Below, in pieces: positions 21-62,897 of a stretch of DNA of 64,000 nt. The position numbers and the translations under genes were made by a program. A model generated the notes under the pieces. The model worked only from the letters and a program-made list of their open reading frames with translations. It did no database searches and was not told the origin of the DNA. Positions within the stretch are counted from its first letter, which is position 1. Each line of letters starts with the position of its first letter. The stretch is from a phage, in sequence record OZ346212.1; one strand, written 5' to 3'.

Positions 21-2444
21 ATGAGCATGTGGTCGTTCGACTTTGAGTCATCCGGTTTGCTGGAAGACCCAGATCTTTATTATCACTGCGGCCTGTTTAA
101 AGAGCTGAATAAGAACCGTTTTATGCTGTTCCTTCCTCTAAATGACCGCACACACTACTCCGAGGAGGATATAGAAAAGGCTAAGAACTTCATTCTGGCA
201 AAGAAAACTCTTTATAAAGATTTTGAAGTTCGCATAGCAGATTTTTCAGAGTTGGAAGGTTGGCTTACAGGAAATTCTGACTGGTCACCAACAGCTTTGA
301 ACTGCCATAACTGCTACAGTTATGACTTTATGCTGATGGAAAGATTATCTGGTATTCATTTTGATATGTTCCGTGATCCTAAGTGTATGGGGACTATCAA
401 CGATCACCAGGTTAACCTGTTTGATACGTTGGCGATGAGCCGAATCTTGTGGCCTGATCGCCCTTTACCAAAAGGTTGTCCGGACTCTGTATTCAACCCG
501 GTTACTAAGAAAATGCAGCCTGTTGGTCCTCACGGCCTTATGGCATGGGGCTACGCCCTTGGTAACCAGAAAGTTCAAATTGATGACTGGCGCGATCTTC
601 CGTTATGGAAGTATGTGGATCGTGTATTTGAGGACGTTATCATCCAGGAGCTGCTCTGGAAAGAGCTGGTAGCGGAATCAAAAGGTGTATTCTACGGCAA
701 ATCTGACATGCAGAACTTTATGTACGATCCTGCCAAAGAGAAGCCGAAAGGGTTCAAGAAGATCACCTGGAAGAACGCATTACGTCGAGGCATGTTGCAG
801 CACTTCCTGATGGAGCTGCAGGCCCGTCAGGGTGTATACTTCGACATAGATGGGGCTATTGCTTTACGTGACCGCTGCGATGCGTGGATGAAAGAGATCG
901 CTGATCGTGTTGAACCACAACTGCCTTTAAAAGAGCTGTCAATGTCTCAGCGGCCCAAGTTCCCTGAAAAGCCGTTTAACCAAGATGGGACAATCTCTAA
1001 TAATGGTTGGAAATGGTTAAAAGATAAGCTTGGCTATCCTGTGGACATGAGTGCTTTAGAGTTCAAAGCCCCACCTAAGCGAGCATTTACCTCTACAGGA
1101 GATGTCAGTAAGATGGGGATAAAATGGTGTGAAGAGATGGGCTGCAAAGACCACGATAAGATGGCTGATTTCTTGAGAGGTTATATTAAGGGCACCTCCA
1201 CACCACAACCTTTACCTAAAGAGCTGATGGATCAGGCAATAAGCGATCTGCAACAGAAGCGAATGCCTGACTGCAAGATACCTATGAAAATCAGCAATCA
1301 GGACGACATTAAGCGATACCTGATCAGTGCTGGTTGGCTTCCGACAATGTGGAGAACTAAGGATGTAACTAAGGACAGCAAGAAGAAAGCTCTACCTGAT
1401 GCAGATGTTGATGCACGAGTATATGCATACATGGACGAGCTTTTAGAGTCAGAGTATTGTGACCTAATTATCAACTTCTGGAACAAAACTGATGCTAAGT
1501 TTCAGACAACAGTGCACAAGTTCCGAAGCTTTCCTAACTCCGAAAGGATTAAAAAGGAAGTGTTCGGGAAAATACGCAGAAAAGCCAGGGCACTTATTAC
1601 TTCTCCGCAACTGAAAGATACGTTTGGACACCTATGTCCGAATCTTGAAAAATTGAACGGAGAGATGGCTAAAGATATCGTCTTGTGGTTATCATTGCGA
1701 AACCGCAGATCGGTCCTTGATCCAATCAAGGAGGATAAGGTTGATACTGGTCTTCTTAATCACCCACGTTTGAAGATTGACCATAAGCTTCCTGCTAAAA
1801 GCTCTGGATTAACAAACACTTCCCGACAGAAACACAGTATTTGTGCAAACATGCCTAAACCATCTCCTAAAGTGGTTATGGGTAAAGAGATGCGTAGCTT
1901 GTGGGGTGTTCCTCCTGGATACTTTGAGATCGGTATTGACGGGTCCAACTTAGAGCAGCTTATCGGGGCTTGGGGTGCCTTTGAGTTCGACAACGGCTTG
2001 TACTATGATGTTGTAAGTAACGGGGACGCACACCAAAACAATGCTGAGGCATATACAAAAGTAGCAGGCAGAGAGGTGTCTCGTAACGACGGTAAACCTA
2101 TCACGTATGGGGTTATGTACGGGGCACAAAAAGATAAAGTTGCAGATATGCTGGATATCTCCCCAGAGTTGGGGCAAAGGGTGATCGATGCACTTTGGGA
2201 TGCCAACCCAGGTCTTAAGGGGCGCAAAGAGGATCTGGAGAAATTCTGGGAAGCAACAGGTAAGAAGTTTATCTACTCTTTTGATGGTCATGCTATCTGG
2301 ACCCGATCTAAACACTCTTTACTTAATGCATACCAACAAAATGGCGGCGCATCGTTGTGTGACTTAGTTGGGATACTCATGCACCATCAAATGGTGAAGC
2401 GTGGGTGGTACGATGAAGGTGTTCGTCGTATTATCTATTACCAT
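21..2444 (+). CDS. DNA polymerase, family A (T7 gp5-like), exon 1: 3'-5' exonuclease domain plus polymerase motifs A and B
   Basis: AAGGAG SD then ATG 21; N-terminus SFDFESSGLL...YHCGLF resembles T7 DNAP Exo I; motif A-like IDGSNLEQL and motif B-like RNDGKPITYGVMYG; frame closes one codon after ...RRIIYYH, exactly where motif C (HDE) is expected. Confidence 0.8.
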
Positions 2445-3286
2445 AAATAACATTGTGGCTTCGTGCAGTGATGCACGTCGAAAACCTCTTTAATTGACGG
2501 GAAGGCTAAGTTGACTTTTACACCTAAACATGGTAAAAGCTCAATATGCTAATCCGCAGCGAAGACTAAAGGGGTGTAGTTAAAATGGCTAGATCAGTTG
2601 AGTATCACGGATATACCGTGTTTGATGATGGAACAATACCTTTATCGAAACGTGATCATACAACAATGTTTTGTTTTGATAATGGTCGAGGTTACCTTTG
2701 CGTAACCATGTTCATCGAGGGGAAGCAGTGCACAAAAGGTGTCCACCACTTGGTTGCTGAATGCTTTGTATCAAACCCTGATCCTGAAAGGCTCACATGG
2801 GTGAACCATAAGGACGGAAACAAATACAACAATGCATACTGGAACCTTGAATGGACCACCCCTGGTGGAAATATCAAACACGCTTATGATAATGACCTCA
2901 GAGTAAGGCCAGTCGGTGAGTATAATGCCAACGCTGTACTGACCGAGGATGAGGTAACGGAGATTTGCGAACTGTTACAAAGTGGTTTACGACAATGCGA
3001 GATTAGGGATCTTGGGTATCCTTATGAGACGGTCAGAGCCATAAAGCAAAGAAGACAGTGGAAACATATCTCTAAAAACTACACCTGGTAGTAACGTTCA
3101 GAGACTATCGAAAGCATAGCGCCAACATAAATTGGTGCGAAGAAGCGAGTAGAGTAGACCAGCAAGTGCGGTCGAAATGGGAGGTGCCTTGGTAACAAGG
3201 TAGTGAGATAGTCCGATCCATACAGGAAACTGTATGGCTGTGCACGTAATGGTGCGGGGTAGCTTAACGACCTACCTGAACTATTG
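2445..3286 (+). mobile_element. putative group I self-splicing intron in the DNA polymerase gene (boundaries approximate)
   Basis: Last exon-1 nt is U, last insert nt is G; joining 2444|3287 restores ...YYH|DEYQLQV (motif C); insert carries a free-standing HNH ORF flanked by 140 nt and 195 nt of non-coding sequence. Confidence 0.55.
2585..3091 (+). CDS. HNH homing endonuclease (intron-encoded)
   Basis: HNH signature HHLVAECF...VNHKDGNKYNNAYWNLEW; complete ORF lying inside the interrupted polymerase gene. Confidence 0.8.
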   Translation: MARSVEYHGYTVFDDGTIPLSKRDHTTMFCFDNGRGYLCVTMFIEGKQCTKGVHHLVAECFVSNPDPERLTWVNHKDGNKYNNAYWNLEWTTPGGNIKHAYDNDLRVRPVGEYNANAVLTEDEVTEICELLQSGLRQCEIRDLGYPYETVRAIKQRRQWKHISKNYTW

Positions 3287-3640
3287 GATGAGTACCAACT
3301 TCAAGTCCCTGACACACCGAAGTATAAGACTGTGTACACCTTCGACACAATCGAAGAACTGGAAGCATTTAAGGCAGAGCAGGAGGCCAAACTTCATGTG
3401 TTCGACGGTCATAAGTACAAAAAGGCACGCAAGGATGAGGACGGAAACGAAGTGGTTGACAGAGACGGAAACACGGTGTACGATCCTATCCTGAACGATG
3501 ACGGAAAGCTTGAACTTATCTGGAGCCCTGTGGGTGAAATGGTGGTGCATTGCTTCTGGCAAGCTTCTAAAATGATGGGCGTCCCGTTCCAGATCACGGG
3601 TGAATACCTGTGTGGTCGTAATTGGGGTGATTGTCACTAA
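3287..3640 (+). CDS. DNA polymerase exon 2 (motif C to C-terminus)
   Basis: Frame reads DEYQLQV... supplying the missing HDE; C-terminus ...GEYLCGRNWGDCH parallels the T7 DNAP C-terminus ...GKMGPNWAICH. Confidence 0.7.
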   Translation, partial: DEYQLQVPDTPKYKTVYTFDTIEELEAFKAEQEAKLHVFDGHKYKKARKDEDGNEVVDRDGNTVYDPILNDDGKLELIWSPVGEMVVHCFWQASKMMGVPFQITGEYLCGRNWGDCH

Positions 3641-36263: not shown

Positions 36264-37532
36264 TCAGCAACCACAACTTCCGTAGTGCTTAACTCGCTCG
36301 ATAACTTCCGCTTGCTTACCTTTATTGTAAGGACGGGAGTTAGGACTGGAAAGGTATCCAGACACACGTCGAATTACACTGATCGTTCCCTCTTCATGGT
36401 TTCCACACTCTGGGCATACAAAGCCTTTAGCTGTTGCACTGAACTCACCAGAGAAACCACACTTGAGACATTTATCCACAGGTTGGTTAATACCAAAATA
36501 CATAATGTGTTTATACCCGAAGTCAACAAGAGCCTCTAAAGCATCCAGGTTGTTTTTCAGGTTAGGTGTTTCTACGTATCCGATGTTGCCACCAGAGGAT
36601 ATCATAGCAAAACCTTCTTCATACTCCCACTTATCAAAAGGAGAGCTATTGATCCATACTGGCTGATGGAAACTGTTGGTGAGATATTCATGCTCGTGCT
36701 TCAACACTTCAGGATATTCACGATCCAGACAGGTTGCAGCTTTATAGCATAGACTCTCAGAAGGGGTGCCGTACAAACTAAACGCTAGTCTACTTTTCTT
36801 CTTGTATCGCTCACAAGCATCTCTCATGTGCTGAAGTATTCCAAGAGCTAAAGCCTTGTCACCCTCTCTGCCCAAAATCTGACAGGTTTCATACACACCA
36901 ATATACCCAATACTGATGGAAGCGTACCCGTCATAGAAGAGTTTATCAATACTCTCTTCAGGATCCAGGCGAGCAAGAGCGCCTTCACACCACATGATAG
37001 GGTTCTGCCCTGCCTTAGTGCCTTTCAGACGGTTAACCCTTACAAGGTGAGCTTCATATGCCAAATCCAGATACTCGTCAAGAACGGAAAAGAAATCAAC
37101 ACCTTCCGTCTTAGCTTTTGCCGCAATCATTGGCAGGTTAAGACTAACAACACCCAAGTTGAATCTGCCGAGGTATTTCTCCTCACCTGTTTCCAAGTCA
37201 TTGTATTTGCTAAGAAAACTCCGGCAACCCATGCTCGTTACTTTACCATCTGTCGAGCCTGTCACTTTACGATTTAGTGGAACAGAAACAAAGTCAGGAT
37301 AAATCCGCTCTGCAGAGCATTCCAGAGCTAATCGTTTCAAATCATAGTTAGGATCTCCAGGGTTCATGTTGACACCCTCTTCTAGGAAGAACAACACTTT
37401 AGGGAACACAGGTGTGATACGTTCTTCACCAAGACCCATTTTGTGGACTTTCAAGTAGTTTTTGGTAATCATTCTACCAAAGACTGAGGTGTCCAGACCT
37501 AAACTTAATGTGATGAATGGAGTCTGCTGTCT
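36264..37532 (-). CDS. nrdD: anaerobic ribonucleoside-triphosphate reductase, exon 2 (glycyl-radical half)
   Basis: In-frame upstream extension RQQTPFITLSLGLDTS...; MGCRSFL active-site Cys, RRVSGYL glycyl-radical motif, C-terminal CxxC...CxxC. Confidence 0.75.
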   Translation of the reverse strand, partial: RQQTPFITLSLGLDTSVFGRMITKNYLKVHKMGLGEERITPVFPKVLFFLEEGVNMNPGDPNYDLKRLALECSAERIYPDFVSVPLNRKVTGSTDGKVTSMGCRSFLSKYNDLETGEEKYLGRFNLGVVSLNLPMIAAKAKTEGVDFFSVLDEYLDLAYEAHLVRVNRLKGTKAGQNPIMWCEGALARLDPEESIDKLFYDGYASISIGYIGVYETCQILGREGDKALALGILQHMRDACERYKKKSRLAFSLYGTPSESLCYKAATCLDREYPEVLKHEHEYLTNSFHQPVWINSSPFDKWEYEEGFAMISSGGNIGYVETPNLKNNLDALEALVDFGYKHIMYFGINQPVDKCLKCGFSGEFSATAKGFVCPECGNHEEGTISVIRRVSGYLSSPNSRPYNKGKQAEVIERVKHYGSCGC

Positions 37533-38332
37533 CCTCCCTGTGTTTCCACAGGGCCAGACTATCTCTTACTCTACTTCAATAAGATAATAACCCTTTATTG
37601 TGAGATGCTTACCTTCGGCATTTCCTTCGATAGCCCTATGAACGTTACCTACGTTCAAATTTAAGGCTTTTGCACAGGCATAGAGTGAAGGATATTCACC
37701 CACCAAGGTTTTACCTTTGTATGCCTGCACTTTCCTATAGCACTTACCTGGACAAAGTCCTGTTCGGAAAGCATGTCTCTTATTATCTTCCGGCAAAACC
37801 CACTCTAGGTTAGACGGATGATCATTCAATGTATTGCCATCTTTATGATTCACTTCCCAGTTTTCAGGGTCTTCTGGGACATCCGGCAAACAATACAAGG
37901 CAACAATCCTTGAGGTTTGGATTCGAATCTTTTTACCTTTGTGGTTGAAAGAGTACATATAACGGCGTTTAACATGCTTGTTACCTTTTCCATAACCTCC
38001 CCACAATATTGGGTGTAGCATTCCACGTTTTCCGTATACGTTTCCAACCTCATCAATCACATAGTTTGATTCTTCACCATTAAGAATGATCTTTTTCATA
38101 GAGCCTCTCCATTTCGAAGTTAGTATTTCAACTAACCCCTACACTACTTGGTTCAGAAATGTTTGTCAAGCATTTCTGCCTTTCGTTAGTCGTTACAACC
38201 GTTCCAACTCCTGTAAGAACTAGTCACGGGATTGGCATAGCTTTCGCCTTAGCGTTCCCCGTTAGCCGGATTTACCGACCCCTCTTATGAGGTTAGGAGA
38301 GTTTTACAACGGCCAGTTTGTTAACCGTTGAC
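37533..38332 (-). mobile_element. putative group I intron (T4-like core) in nrdD, HNH ORF in 3' region (boundaries approximate)
   Basis: 5' portion contains CUAACGGGGAAC...CAAUCCCGUG, matching the T4 td intron core AAACGGGGAAC...CAAUCCCGUG; exon 1 ends in U, insert ends in G; splice restores INTLTS|RQQTPF. Confidence 0.6.
37566..38099 (-). CDS. HNH homing endonuclease (intron-encoded)
   Basis: WEVNHKDGNTLNDHPSNLEW HNH signature; lies between the two nrdD halves. Confidence 0.8.
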   Translation of the reverse strand: MKKIILNGEESNYVIDEVGNVYGKRGMLHPILWGGYGKGNKHVKRRYMYSFNHKGKKIRIQTSRIVALYCLPDVPEDPENWEVNHKDGNTLNDHPSNLEWVLPEDNKRHAFRTGLCPGKCYRKVQAYKGKTLVGEYPSLYACAKALNLNVGNVHRAIEGNAEGKHLTIKGYYLIEVE

Positions 38333-39184
38333 AGAAGTTAACGTGTTGATTTGATAGAGCAAAGTCTGCATGCTGTCAAATACGTCTTTATCTGTCATTT
38401 GCATTGCAACAGTTTCAGCATCCGGCAACCAATGTTCCTGGCAAAATTTAAGGTTCTTCTCATAGGTTGCTTCAGCATACTGTGCCAGATAATGATCAAT
38501 ATGGCTCATAGTCTGACCACCATATTGAGCACTAGCTACCGCACTAGAGATTTGGCTAAGGATTGTTGTTGCAACCCCTATTGACTTCGGCTTACTGACA
38601 TGGGCGTTACCAATGTTGAATCCGTTTTCCAACATATCTGGATAATTTACCAAACAACAGTTTGTTAACGGACTGATCAAGTAGTCAAGATCATGCACAT
38701 GGATGAATCCTTTATTGTGCTCTTCGGAGACACGGTCTGGCAGGATCTGTGTTGATGCAAGGTGTTTGCTAAGAATACCTGCAAGCAGGTCGCGATGAGT
38801 GTGTACATGATTAGTAGGCTTATTTGCGTTTTCTTTTGTAAATTCATCACAAGTTCGATCCAAGAAGCCACTAATATCTGCAAGCAGTTTTCCACCTGCC
38901 TCTCTGTTATTATCTCTTGTCTGTCTATACTGGATGTATTCTCTGGCTGCACATTTTAAACCCATATCCATAAGAGCATCTTCAACAAGGATATGGATAT
39001 TTTTTACAGAGATCGTGCACTGGTCGGTTGGTAGATTGTTAGCAACAACTTCATTAACCGCGCAGGCGATCCGGTAAGCTTCTTCTTCAGTATGTCCAGA
39101 CTCAAGTAAGGCGGACTCTGCCGCCTTGATCACCTTAATTCCGTTATAGAACTCTTCTCTACCGTCCCGTTTTACAACTTTCAC
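38333..39184 (-). CDS. nrdD: anaerobic ribonucleoside-triphosphate reductase, exon 1 (ATP-cone and N-terminal half)
   Basis: MKVVKRDGREEFYNGIKV ATP-cone start; ends ...LYQINTLTS just before the intron. Confidence 0.75.
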
Positions 39185-62084: not shown

Positions 62085-62159
62085 GCCCTGTTAGCTTAGT
62101 GGATAAAGCAGCGGCCTTCTAAGCCGTTGACACTGGTTCGAGTCCAGTACGGGGTGCCA
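62085..62159 (+). tRNA. tRNA-Arg (anticodon UCU)
   Basis: Hand-folded cloverleaf: acceptor GCCCTGT/ACGGGGT, anticodon loop CTTCTAA, T-loop TTCGAGT, encoded CCA. Confidence 0.8.
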
Positions 62160-62163
62160 AATT

Positions 62164-62250
62164 GGGGAGTTATCCCGTAGAGGTAGCGGTGTAGACTGTA
62201 AATCTATTGTCATTGCGACTCGGGTGGTTCGACTCCACCACTCCCCACCA
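62164..62250 (+). tRNA. tRNA-Tyr (anticodon GUA), long variable arm
   Basis: Acceptor GGGGAGT/ACTCCCC, anticodon loop CTGTAAA, T-loop TTCGACT, CCA; overall like E. coli tRNA-Tyr. Confidence 0.8.
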
Positions 62251-62364
62251 AATTTATATTTTTAGATGCATAAATAATACAGATAATGGCATTGATATTT
62301 ATCGTCGTTTATACTAGTCACTAACTGCTCGAAAATCAGTGTCATTATCAGTATTATTTATAAA

Positions 62365-62455
62365 GGAGGGTAGGGAGCAATGGTGCTCAATCGGTCTTGA
62401 AAACCGTCCCGTTGAGGATGACTCGATGATGGTTCGATTCCATTACTCTCCGCCA
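62365..62455 (+). tRNA. tRNA-Ser (anticodon UGA), long variable arm
   Basis: Acceptor GGAGGGT/ACTCTCC, anticodon loop CTTGAAA, 20-nt variable arm, T-loop TTCGATT, CCA. Confidence 0.75.
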
Positions 62456-62553
62456 CATTGTTGACCTTGTAATTAAGCGAAAGTCGGAAGCAGAACCGGA
62501 TTATCAAATGTTACAGTCGTCATCGCCGACTAGCAACATGGTCAACATACTGA

Positions 62554-62650
62554 GCTAGGTAAGCCCTTTGGCAAGGGCGAGGATTTTTAATCCTGAAAAT
62601 AGACGAGGTAGTCGTTGAATACATAGGTGGTTCGATTCCATCACCTAGCA
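62554..62650 (+). tRNA. atypical 97-nt tRNA-like gene (possibly Lys-UUU with about 29-nt variable region) or pseudo-tRNA
   Basis: Perfect acceptor GCTAGGT/ACCTAGC, D-arm GCCC...GGGC, hairpin with loop TTTTTAA, extra hairpin ACGA-ggtag-TCGT, T-arm GGTGG-TTCGATT-CCATC; no encoded CCA. Confidence 0.35.
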
Positions 62651-62657
62651 CCTTTTT

Positions 62658-62733
62658 GCTGATGTAGCACAATCGGTAGTGCAATTGATTTGTAATCAAT
62701 AGGTTGTAGGTTCAAGTCCTGCCATCAGCACCA
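62658..62733 (+). tRNA. tRNA-Thr (anticodon UGU)
   Basis: Acceptor GCTGATG/CATCAGC, anticodon stem ATTGA/TCAAT with loop TTTGTAA, T-loop TTCAAGT, CCA. Confidence 0.85.
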
Positions 62734-62734
62734 A

Positions 62735-62809
62735 GGCCCTGTAGCTGGAAGGTTCAAGCAAGCGACTCATAATCGCCAGACGGTGGTTCAATTCCACCCA
62801 GGGCCACCA
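62735..62809 (+). tRNA. tRNA-Met or Ile2 (anticodon CAU), elongator type
   Basis: Acceptor GGCCCTG/CAGGGCC fully paired (not initiator-like), anticodon loop CTCATAA, T-loop TTCAATT, CCA. Confidence 0.75.
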
Positions 62810-62820
62810 AATAGTAAATA

Positions 62821-62897
62821 CTCCGCGTAGCTCAGCTTGGTAGAGCGCCTGATTTGGGATCAGGAGGTCGAGTGTTCGAATCACTCCGTGGAGACCA
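62821..62897 (+). tRNA. tRNA-Pro (anticodon UGG)
   Basis: Acceptor CTCCGCG/CGTGGAG, D-arm GCTC...GAGC, anticodon stem CCTGA/TCAGG with loop TTTGGGA, T-loop TTCGAAT, CCA. Confidence 0.85.

Follow-up and report, generated by a model that had tools for sequence, protein, structure and literature searches.

A probable subgroup IA2 group I intron with an HNH endonuclease gene in nrdD of an rV5-like Vequintavirus

The nrdD gene of the phage studied here appears as two open reading frames, and the question is whether these are two genes or the exons of one. The window, which is the whole stretch of 64,000 nucleotides analysed from sequence record OZ346212.1, carries both on its minus strand (38321..39184 and 36264..37472, the latter in a frame that is open upstream to 37543), and they match positions 1–154 and 157–562 of the Pfam NRDD profile, respectively. 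By sequence comparison the source is an rV5-like Vequintavirus, the window genome being 99.7% identical to phage magaca, and not a T4-like phage. It is very likely that a mobile, self-splicing group I intron of subgroup IA2 interrupts nrdD in this phage. The features of the locus are collected in Table 1.

Table 1. Exons, intron, helices and endonuclease gene at the nrdD locus (coordinates of the window).
Feature	Position	Strand	Details and evidence
nrdD exon 1	38324..39184	-	GTG start; ATP-cone and N-terminal NRDD; ORF list, Pfam
nrdD exon 1 end		-	...INTLTSVNG, last codon GGU; junction from intron-less rV5 and JohannBauhin alleles
Group I intron, IA2-like	37527..38323	-	797 nt; begins UAACAAAC, ends ...GACAG; terminal G at 37527
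P1	38307..38330	-	exon CAACGGU (38330..38324) with internal guide GCCGUUG (38313..38307)
P3 5' strand CUCUCC	38296..38301	-	partner GGAGAG 38110..38105; unconstrained MFE and RNAalifold
Two P3-P4 hairpins (P3.1/P3.2-like)	38264..38292	-	CCUC-AUAA-GAGG; GGUCGG-UAAAU-CCGGCU
P4-P5-P5a domain	38226..38262	-	ACGGG ... GC..GGC GAAA GCU..GC ... CCCGU; identical in all variants
P6 hairpin	38201..38220	-	two compensatory pairs relative to the ORF-less form
P7 5' strand GACUA	38187..38191	-	partner UAGUC 37561..37557; pseudoknot with P3; invariant
P7.1	38178..38154	-	IA2 signature together with P7.2 and GUA
GUA	38142..38140	-	immediately 5' of P7.2; IA2 signature
P7.2	38139..38116	-	IA2 signature, between P7 and P3 3' strand
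P3 3' strand GGAGAG	38105..38110	-	also core of the HNH ORF's Shine-Dalgarno-like GGAGAGG
P8 5' strand GCUCUAU	38104..38098	-	takes in AU of the HNH start codon
HNH homing-endonuclease ORF (predicted), I-HmuI-like	37566..38099	-	177 aa; in P8 loop; Pfam HNH_3, phmmer, phrog_59
P8 3' strand GUAGAGU	37574..37568	-	pairs with GCUCUAU; ends on U of the UAA stop
J8/7 AAGAGA and P7 3' strand UAGUC	within 37527..37567	-	Rfam partial alignment of the block
P9 CCCUGUG-GAAA-CACAGGG and tail AGGAGACAG to terminal G	within 37527..37567	-	one compensatory P9 pair
nrdD exon 2	36264..37526	-	starts CAG ACU CCA = QTP...; Pfam NRDD 157-562 and Gly_radical

The gene is indeed split, and the boundaries are set by the intron-less nrdD alleles of phage rV5 and JohannBauhin; comparison with intron-less alleles had been proposed as a check. 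These alleles read ...GTCAACGGG/CAAACTCCA... (a slash marks the junction here and below), or ...TSVNG/QTPF... in the protein, and the window exons joined at 38324/37526 encode the same protein. Excision thus restores the frame exactly at the rV5 junction NG/QT. The product is a 707-aa NrdD that is colinear with rV5 NrdD and carries 5 substitutions in 707 residues, with the glycyl-radical domain encoded by exon 2. The original prediction of about 800 nt between the two halves of nrdD was close to the actual length, but it ended exon 1 three residues early, at INTLTS, and began exon 2 two residues early: the 'RQ' in 'RQQTPF' belongs to the intron and is in frame by chance. The UAA that stops the exon 1 frame is formed by intron bases 1–3. 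An intein was rejected because there are stop codons in the exon frame from the first codon of the insert.

Relatives of the phage show the locus in three states. Among 121 related phage records, 28 have the intron with its ORF, 14 have an ORF-less intron and about 79 are empty. The ORF-less intron, 257 nt long, lies at exactly the same nrdD site in sister Vequintaviruses (HeinrichReichert, CM1, bov10K2, AlexBoehm and others) and has the same fold; in BASEL phages it is annotated within a joined CDS, and the joined CDS of MaxBurger implies the same 797-nt intron as in the window. The ORF-less form lacks the long P7.1 as well as the ORF, whereas its P4–P5 block is 100% identical to that of the window intron and over the first 139 nt the identity is about 86%. 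In its P8, an extended and closed hairpin, 20 of 25 nt of ORF codons 9–17 survive, which suggests, from sequence comparison, that this form arose by loss of the ORF.

The intervening RNA has the features of a group I intron. P1 places a U•G wobble (U38324•G38313) at the 5' splice site, the last intron base is G37527, and in the core from P3 to P9, with its P3/P7 pseudoknot, every helix pairs in both intron forms. Missing P1–P9 pairing had been named as the result that would speak against an intron; P1, P3–P9, P7.1 and P7.2 all form, and the single flaw is a U-U mismatch in P6. In introns of subgroup IA2, P7.1 and P7.2 lie between P7 and the 3' strand of P3 and are linked by G-U-A (PMC3428280), and the window intron has P7.1, GUA, P7.2 and the P3 3' strand in this order. 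In addition, AAGAGAUAGUC aligns to the Rfam J8/7-P7' consensus. The T4 intron core elements reported earlier, AACGGGGAAC...CAATCCCGT, are indeed present at 38263..38226; the combination is found at this one place in the window and in none of 100 shuffles. P10 is weak: the window has 3 bp (CUG/CAG) and ORF-less alleles have 2 bp. Two covarying hairpins lie between P3 and P4. At the periphery of an IA2 intron of the T-even type such an addition is atypical, but it is not novel in kind, since P3.1 is on the list of optional group I helices (PMC3873408). An alternative P3, built from the segment just 5' of P4, was rejected because it lacks a complementary 3' partner in either intron form; the attempt of Rfam at such a P3 uses non-canonical pairs.

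P1, P3, P4–P6, P7.2, P8 and P9 are recovered both by unconstrained MFE folding of the ORF-trimmed RNA and by RNAalifold on the ORF-less forms. Because MAFFT misregistered P7.1–P8 when given the full-length variants, pairs were counted in a hand-trimmed alignment. In this alignment of 8 variants, which was registered by hand, trimmed to equal length and leans towards structure, 63 pairs are 99.8% paired (31–46% in slid controls), and 11 pairs differ on both sides between the window and ORF-less introns (0–2 in slid controls). For example, the outer pair of P1 changes from C-G to A-U in ORF-less alleles (alignment pair 6/29), P3 shows a swap of C-G to G-C (39/175), and the second P3–P4 hairpin shows a compensatory change of G-C to A-U (60/68). 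P8 has another sequence in the ORF-less form, but pairing is maintained, and 4 of its pairs are compensatory. When remoter relatives were sought by pattern scans, only rV5-like contigs came up (1 from IMG/VR and 4 from metagenomes), so the covariation comes from essentially two lineages.

An Rfam search, which had been suggested as a check, does not by itself identify the intron. A scan of the window at gathering thresholds reports tRNAs only, and in E-value mode there are sub-threshold Intron_gpI matches that are misaligned through the ORF, full-length alignments to Intron_gpI being reached at E about 1e-4. Against the gathering score of 50 bits for RF00028, the window intron scores 27.8 and an ORF-less intron (L001) 29.8, compared with 105.3 for the T4 sunY control. 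In the alignment of L001, P3 is mis-paired and the P3–P4 hairpins are taken as insertions, and in that of the window the model is broken by the ORF. Probably the model misses the intron owing to these hairpins. With the score below threshold, the identification rests on the manual structure, the covariation and the intron-less alleles. More generally, genuine phage introns fall short of the Intron_gpI gathering score where the core is broken up by an ORF or by additional hairpins.

The ORF inside P8 is, from its sequence, a predicted HNH homing endonuclease of the I-HmuI type; an HNH gene within the insert was correctly recognized at the outset. Pfam HNH_3 (PF13392) matches residues 78–107 (NHKDGN...NLEW) with 29.3 bits, above the cutoff of 24.8, and the I-HmuI_NUMOD-like profile matches weakly, with 18.4 bits against a cutoff of 27. 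I-HmuI itself has two domains, HNH at the N-terminus and a DNA-binding NUMOD/helix-turn-helix part at the C-terminus. By phmmer, residues 8–160 align with residues 8–159 of I-HmuI (PDB 1U3E; E 2.7e-4), and phrog_59 is matched at E 1.5e-26. The ORF is uninterrupted, and its protein is 98.9–100% identical across the 28 records that carry it, in which the DNA of the nrdD region is 94–100% identical to the window. No promoter-like match was found upstream of the ORF in a sigma-70 scan of the intron. The ribosome-binding sequence (GGAGAG) and AUG of the endonuclease lie in the P3 3' and P8 5' strands, and would therefore be masked in the folded ribozyme. Sequestration of the ribosome-binding site has been described for T4 intron endonucleases, and the masking here is much alike.

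Based on established group I chemistry, the intron would be removed as follows. The nrdD pre-mRNA would fold into P1–P9, and an exogenous guanosine would attack after U38324, within the U•G pair of P1. The freed 3'-OH of exon 1 would then attack after the terminal G37527. The exons would be joined as ...AAC GGU/CAG ACU..., giving a predicted junction of ...GUCAACGGU/CAGACUCCA... in an mRNA for the full 707-aa NrdD. When an intron-less relative infects the same cell, the HNH product, for its part, may nick or cut the nrdD of that relative close to the insertion site, and recombinational repair would copy the intron (homing) together with short tracts of flanking exon. The patchy distribution and the near-identity of the endonuclease across the 28 records give indirect support for this. 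ORF-containing and ORF-less alleles differ at 10 of 42 nt near the junction, all synonymous, with a return to background within about 50 nt; the two exons carry 8 and 7 synonymous changes in the 50 nt adjoining the ORF-less intron. There is a small chance that the two intron forms are competing alleles instead of simple stages of decay. If the endonuclease cuts the intron-containing DNA of rivals, the synonymous flank block could mark immunity in a conflict between introns that is still going on in Vequintavirus nrdD. I-HmuI and I-HmuII act by nicking, and they also cleave intron-containing alleles of a rival phage.

Could nrdD be split without any splicing, the HNH gene and its flanks being a plain insertion and two NrdD polypeptides assembling into one enzyme? 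There is a precedent in NrdA of Aeromonas phage Aeh1, which is split by mobE into two polypeptides that assemble (PMC7344957, PMC3653736). Two separate nrdD CDSs are indeed what most GenBank records list; in most of the 28 ORF-containing records there are two nrdD fragments, and the ORF between them is entered as an HNH gene, as a 'hypothetical protein' or, in some, not at all. There is also an in-frame ATG at 37472, and an SD-like GGAGGAG at the 3' end of the intervening sequence. However, this motif has no start codon within 12 nt, and the downstream fragment has no in-frame ATG, GTG or TTG before 37472. As this first ATG lies 18 codons past the junction, the conserved QTPFITLSLGLDTSVFGR, common with T4 NrdD, would be lost. 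Moreover, the ribozyme fold of the intervening RNA is complete and shows compensatory changes, and an unspliced ORF-less form of 257 nt would have no reason to persist. We regard a non-splicing insertion as very unlikely.

If the element is a spliced intron, it could be orthologous to the T4 nrdD (sunY) intron, having come from T-even phages by descent or by transfer, as the original prediction held. Both introns interrupt nrdD in the same conserved protein segment, and both have an IA2 core with P7.1 and P7.2, lack P2 and run into a stop codon soon after the 5' splice site. The core blocks GUAAAA, ACGGG, CAAUCC, AACGACUA, GUAGGG, CGAAA and AAGAnAUAGUCUG are common to the two, and the P7 strands are homologous to AACGACUA / AUAGUC of sunY. 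However, the T4 site (...AYE/YEVNTLFSSNGQTPF) is not the window site (...SVNG/QTPF), which lies 32 nt downstream. The T4 ORF encodes the GIY-YIG endonuclease I-TevII in place of an I-HmuI-like HNH enzyme, and it is located 3' of P9: the T4 core, with J8/7-P7' at intron nt 167, wholly precedes the ORF, which starts at nt 236. In the window, on the other hand, the ORF stands between the P8 strands, and J8/7, the 3' strand of P7 and P9 all follow it; the T4 layout that had been claimed is thus not present. Furthermore, sunY is without the P3–P4 hairpins, scores far above the 27.8–29.8 bits of the window and ORF-less introns in Rfam, and belongs to phages none of which is retrieved by blastn with the 5' core. 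A group I intron with a core of the T-even type (IA2) and an HNH gene in nrdD stands from the first description, but a counterpart of sunY, as stated, is refuted, and orthology in any form is highly improbable. The two nrdD introns are rather a further case in which different introns with different endonuclease families have arrived independently within about 30 nt, in a conserved stretch of a ribonucleotide reductase gene.

Decay of the intron into a form that no longer splices, with nrdD a pseudogene in the window phage, would agree with the sub-threshold Rfam score and with the absence of the intron from many relatives, but is just as improbable, since both exons are intact, in frame and only 5/707 residues away from rV5 NrdD, the differences near the junction are all synonymous, the helices pair apart from the P6 mismatch, and the HNH ORF is conserved without interruption.

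Parallels to the window intron are also found outside T4. The I-HmuI and I-HmuII introns of Bacillus phages SPO1 and SP82 are phage IA2 introns with an HNH nickase (PMC3428280). They lie in another host gene, that of DNA polymerase, and in another phage group; I-HmuI is similar in size, and apparently in domain order, to the window ORF product (174 vs 177 aa), although sequence similarity is low. In the SPO1 intron the ORF is also in P8. Introns of Listeria LP-114 and Bacillus S4-2 have only the P4–P5 block in common with the window intron and are without the P3–P4 hairpins.

The intron is already annotated, as a spliced CDS in BASEL GenBank records, and is in this respect an ordinary finding. 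A literature search found no account of a Vequintavirus nrdD intron and no splicing or cleavage data for the window intron, and the rV5 paper describes terminase introns only. The main value of the present analysis is in annotation: the correct product is one spliced NrdD of 707 aa and not two fragments. Since the genus includes empty, ORF-containing and ORF-less alleles, the three states of the homing cycle, it would also be a convenient system for homing crosses.

In this genus nrdD has a second intron, which is not present in the window. It occurs in phita32, 241Ecol014PP and IMG-VR UViG 3300010279_000001, has a sunY/td-like IA2 core with its ORF after P6, and exists in both HNH-ORF and ORF-less versions. 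Its site corresponds to 37227/37226 in the window and directly precedes the Cys codon in SMG/CRSF. The window itself does hold two independent introns, as was first noted: the other splits a DNA polymerase gene, at 2445..3286 on the plus strand.

The window comes from an E. coli phage, a Vequintavirus resembling rV5, and a phage database search matched its region 36264..39184 to 121 phage records, with 99.7% identity to phage magaca. The anaerobic ribonucleotide reductase NrdD is represented there by two minus-strand ORFs, and the 177-aa ORF between them bears a Pfam HNH_3 domain. In rV5 and JohannBauhin, nrdD is unbroken and reads ...ACT TCT GTC AAC GGG/CAA ACT CCA TTC... (TSVNG/QTPF). In the window, exon 1 runs ...GTC AAC GGT directly into TAA, and the frame picks up again at CAG ACT CCA. 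The intron-less junction and the window reading frames thus define the exon and intron boundaries, and the joined exons encode 707 aa that align colinearly with rV5 NrdD and differ from it by 5 substitutions. The original prediction ended the exons at INTLTS and RQQTPF, which are off by three and two residues relative to the intron-less alleles; RQ was placed in the exon because the intron 3' tail (37543..37527, minus strand) reads in frame with exon 2. This tail also holds a Shine-Dalgarno-like GGAGGAG with no start codon in the following 12 nt, and a shorter, ORF-less intron of sister phages has GGGUGGGG in its place. The in-frame tail is probably coincidental.

Features of the interrupted genes, with the basis of each assignment
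Feature	Coordinates	Strand	Basis
nrdD N-terminal ORF		minus	Pfam: ATP-cone, NRDD profile positions 1-154
nrdD second ORF		minus	Pfam: NRDD 157-562, glycyl-radical domain
nrdD exon 1	39184..38324	minus	intron-less rV5/JohannBauhin alleles
nrdD intron (797 nt)	38323..37527	minus	intron-less rV5/JohannBauhin alleles
nrdD exon 2	37526..36264	minus	intron-less rV5/JohannBauhin alleles
HNH endonuclease ORF (177 aa)	38099..37566	minus	passes Pfam HNH_3 threshold; matches phrog_59
Second window intron (DNA polymerase)	2445..3286	plus	Rfam Intron_gpI 39.1 bits, E 1.8e-6, under gathering score
HNH ORF (168 aa) in DNA polymerase intron	2585..3091		
Second nrdD intron of relatives	phita32 (L002) 2468..3217; L014 (a locus with the ORF-less intron); related locus L008 ~2285..2535		insertion site equivalent to window 37227/37226

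A group I intron in nrdD, as had been proposed, is backed by splice sites, fold and covariation, the Rfam score being the one shortfall. The final exon-1 base is a U paired to G within a 7-bp P1 (CAACGGU/GCCGUUG), and the intron ends in G. With the ORF trimmed out, the unconstrained minimum free energy fold gives P1, a long-range P3 (CUCUCC/GGAGAG), P8 and P9; inside P3 lie two small hairpins, P4-P5-P5a, P6, P7.1 and P7.2. The P7 pseudoknot pairs GACUA (38191..38187) with UAGUC (37561..37557). P7.1 and P7.2 are flanked by P7 and the P3 3' strand, with GUA immediately 5' of P7.2, an arrangement that is the signature of subgroup IA2 (PMC3428280) and supports a predicted assignment to it.

A 257-nt ORF-less intron occupies exactly the same site in 14 sister-phage records, with ~86% identity over the first 139 nt, and is a natural control for the fold. 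RNAalifold on the ORF-less introns alone predicted the same helices. Eight distinct variants were registered by hand in an alignment that was trimmed to fit the structure and effectively samples two lineages. In it, 63 pairs were 99.8% paired, and in 11 of them both partners had changed (P1, P3, the second P3-P4 hairpin, P6, P7.2, P8 and P9 are represented); sliding the partners by 1-3 columns left 31-46% paired and 0-2 pairs changed on both sides. The Rfam Intron_gpI scan fell short of the gathering score of 50 for both the window intron (27.8 bits) and the ORF-less intron (29.8 bits), and gave the T4 nrdD (sunY) intron 105.3 bits. An ORF in P8 together with a ~30-nt hairpin pair between P3 and P4, found neither in sunY nor in the other IA2 introns compared, would fit the low score; 'P3.1' is a recognised optional group I element (PMC3873408). 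That nrdD is instead a split gene of the Aeh1 type, expressed without splicing, is unlikely, as the first start codon comes as late as 18 codons past the junction and compensatory change maintains the ribozyme fold. A dead gene is likewise unlikely, the exons being intact and conserved.

The HNH ORF aligns over residues 8-160 with I-HmuI (PDB 1U3E, 174 aa; E 2.7e-4) and keeps the H...N...N catalytic residues. Its closest phage relatives outside Vequintavirus share at most ~40% identity over most of their length. Its AUG falls within the P8 5' strand and its stop codon shares one base with the P8 3' strand, and therefore the ORF occupies the P8 loop. As the P3 3' strand doubles as its Shine-Dalgarno-like GGAGAGG, the translation signals are predicted to be masked when the ribozyme folds, resembling the sequestered ribosome-binding sites described for T4 intron endonucleases (PMC2988022).

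The T4 nrdD intron (NC_000866; 1033 nt) splits ...AYE/YEVNTLFSSNGQTPF, 32 nt upstream of the window site. Its entire P1-P9 core fits within the first ~200 nt, and the GIY-YIG I-TevII ORF comes after it. The two introns share host gene, conserved segment and ribozyme subgroup, but differ in site, endonuclease family and ORF location. The window intron and the sunY core have sequence blocks in common. 'T4-like core' is a fair description, whereas the 'same layout' once claimed does not hold. Orthology with the T4 intron is refuted by where the window intron is inserted and by the family and position of its ORF. Phage IA2 introns that carry an HNH homing endonuclease in a ribonucleotide reductase gene are a textbook kind of element. 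The BASEL records MaxBurger and HeinrichReichert already give nrdD as a joined CDS (method in PMC8594841), with lengths that imply introns of exactly 797 nt and 257 nt; literature searches found no published description or test of the Vequintavirus nrdD intron.

Of the 121 records, 28 contain the intron with its ORF (at least 98% identical), 14 contain the ORF-less one and ~79 have no intron at this site. The ORF-less intron has a P8 extension hairpin (~1545..1578 in L001, one such allele) that still matches ORF codons 9-17 (window 38073..38049) at 20 of 25 nt, which suggests that this intron is a deletion derivative of the ORF-containing one and not an empty ancestor. In the ORF-less alleles (L001, L012, L013, L014), the 50-nt flanks (window 38374..38324 and 37526..37477) show 8 and 7 substitutions, and the ~150-250 nt beyond them on each side show 0-3 per 50 nt; all ten substitutions in the 42 nt that surround the junction are synonymous. 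The metagenomic contig SKEL01000041 (L017), in which the ORF-less intron is joined to the other upstream flank, is a recombinant. The flank pattern reflects either co-conversion from a diverged donor or a target that resists the endonuclease, and such population marks would be expected for homing with short co-conversion tracts or for target-site immunity. About 20 'Campylobacter phage' records (host C. jejuni; MG065647, MG065655, MG065661, MG065674 and others) are 96-97% identical to the E. coli rV5-like nrdD, and look like coliphages that contaminated that deposit or were given the wrong host label.

The expectation of two introns in the window was borne out by a second group I intron in the family-A DNA polymerase gene, which splits polymerase motif C HDE. 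Exon-1 ORF 21..2444 ends ...IIYYH and exon 2 begins at 3287 (DEYQLQV), the splice sites (after U2444 and G3286) being read by eye from the sequence. A second nrdD intron, lying further downstream, is present in some relatives (phita32, 241Ecol014PP and an IMG/VR contig) and absent from the window; it has a sunY/td-like core and either an HNH ORF or none. Its site is directly 5' of the Cys codon in the conserved SMG/CRSFLS motif; this Cys is the catalytic cysteine of T4 NrdD. Elsewhere in the window, 62085..62894 (plus strand) holds a cluster of six tRNA genes over the Rfam gathering score, with two weak tRNA-like matches among them.
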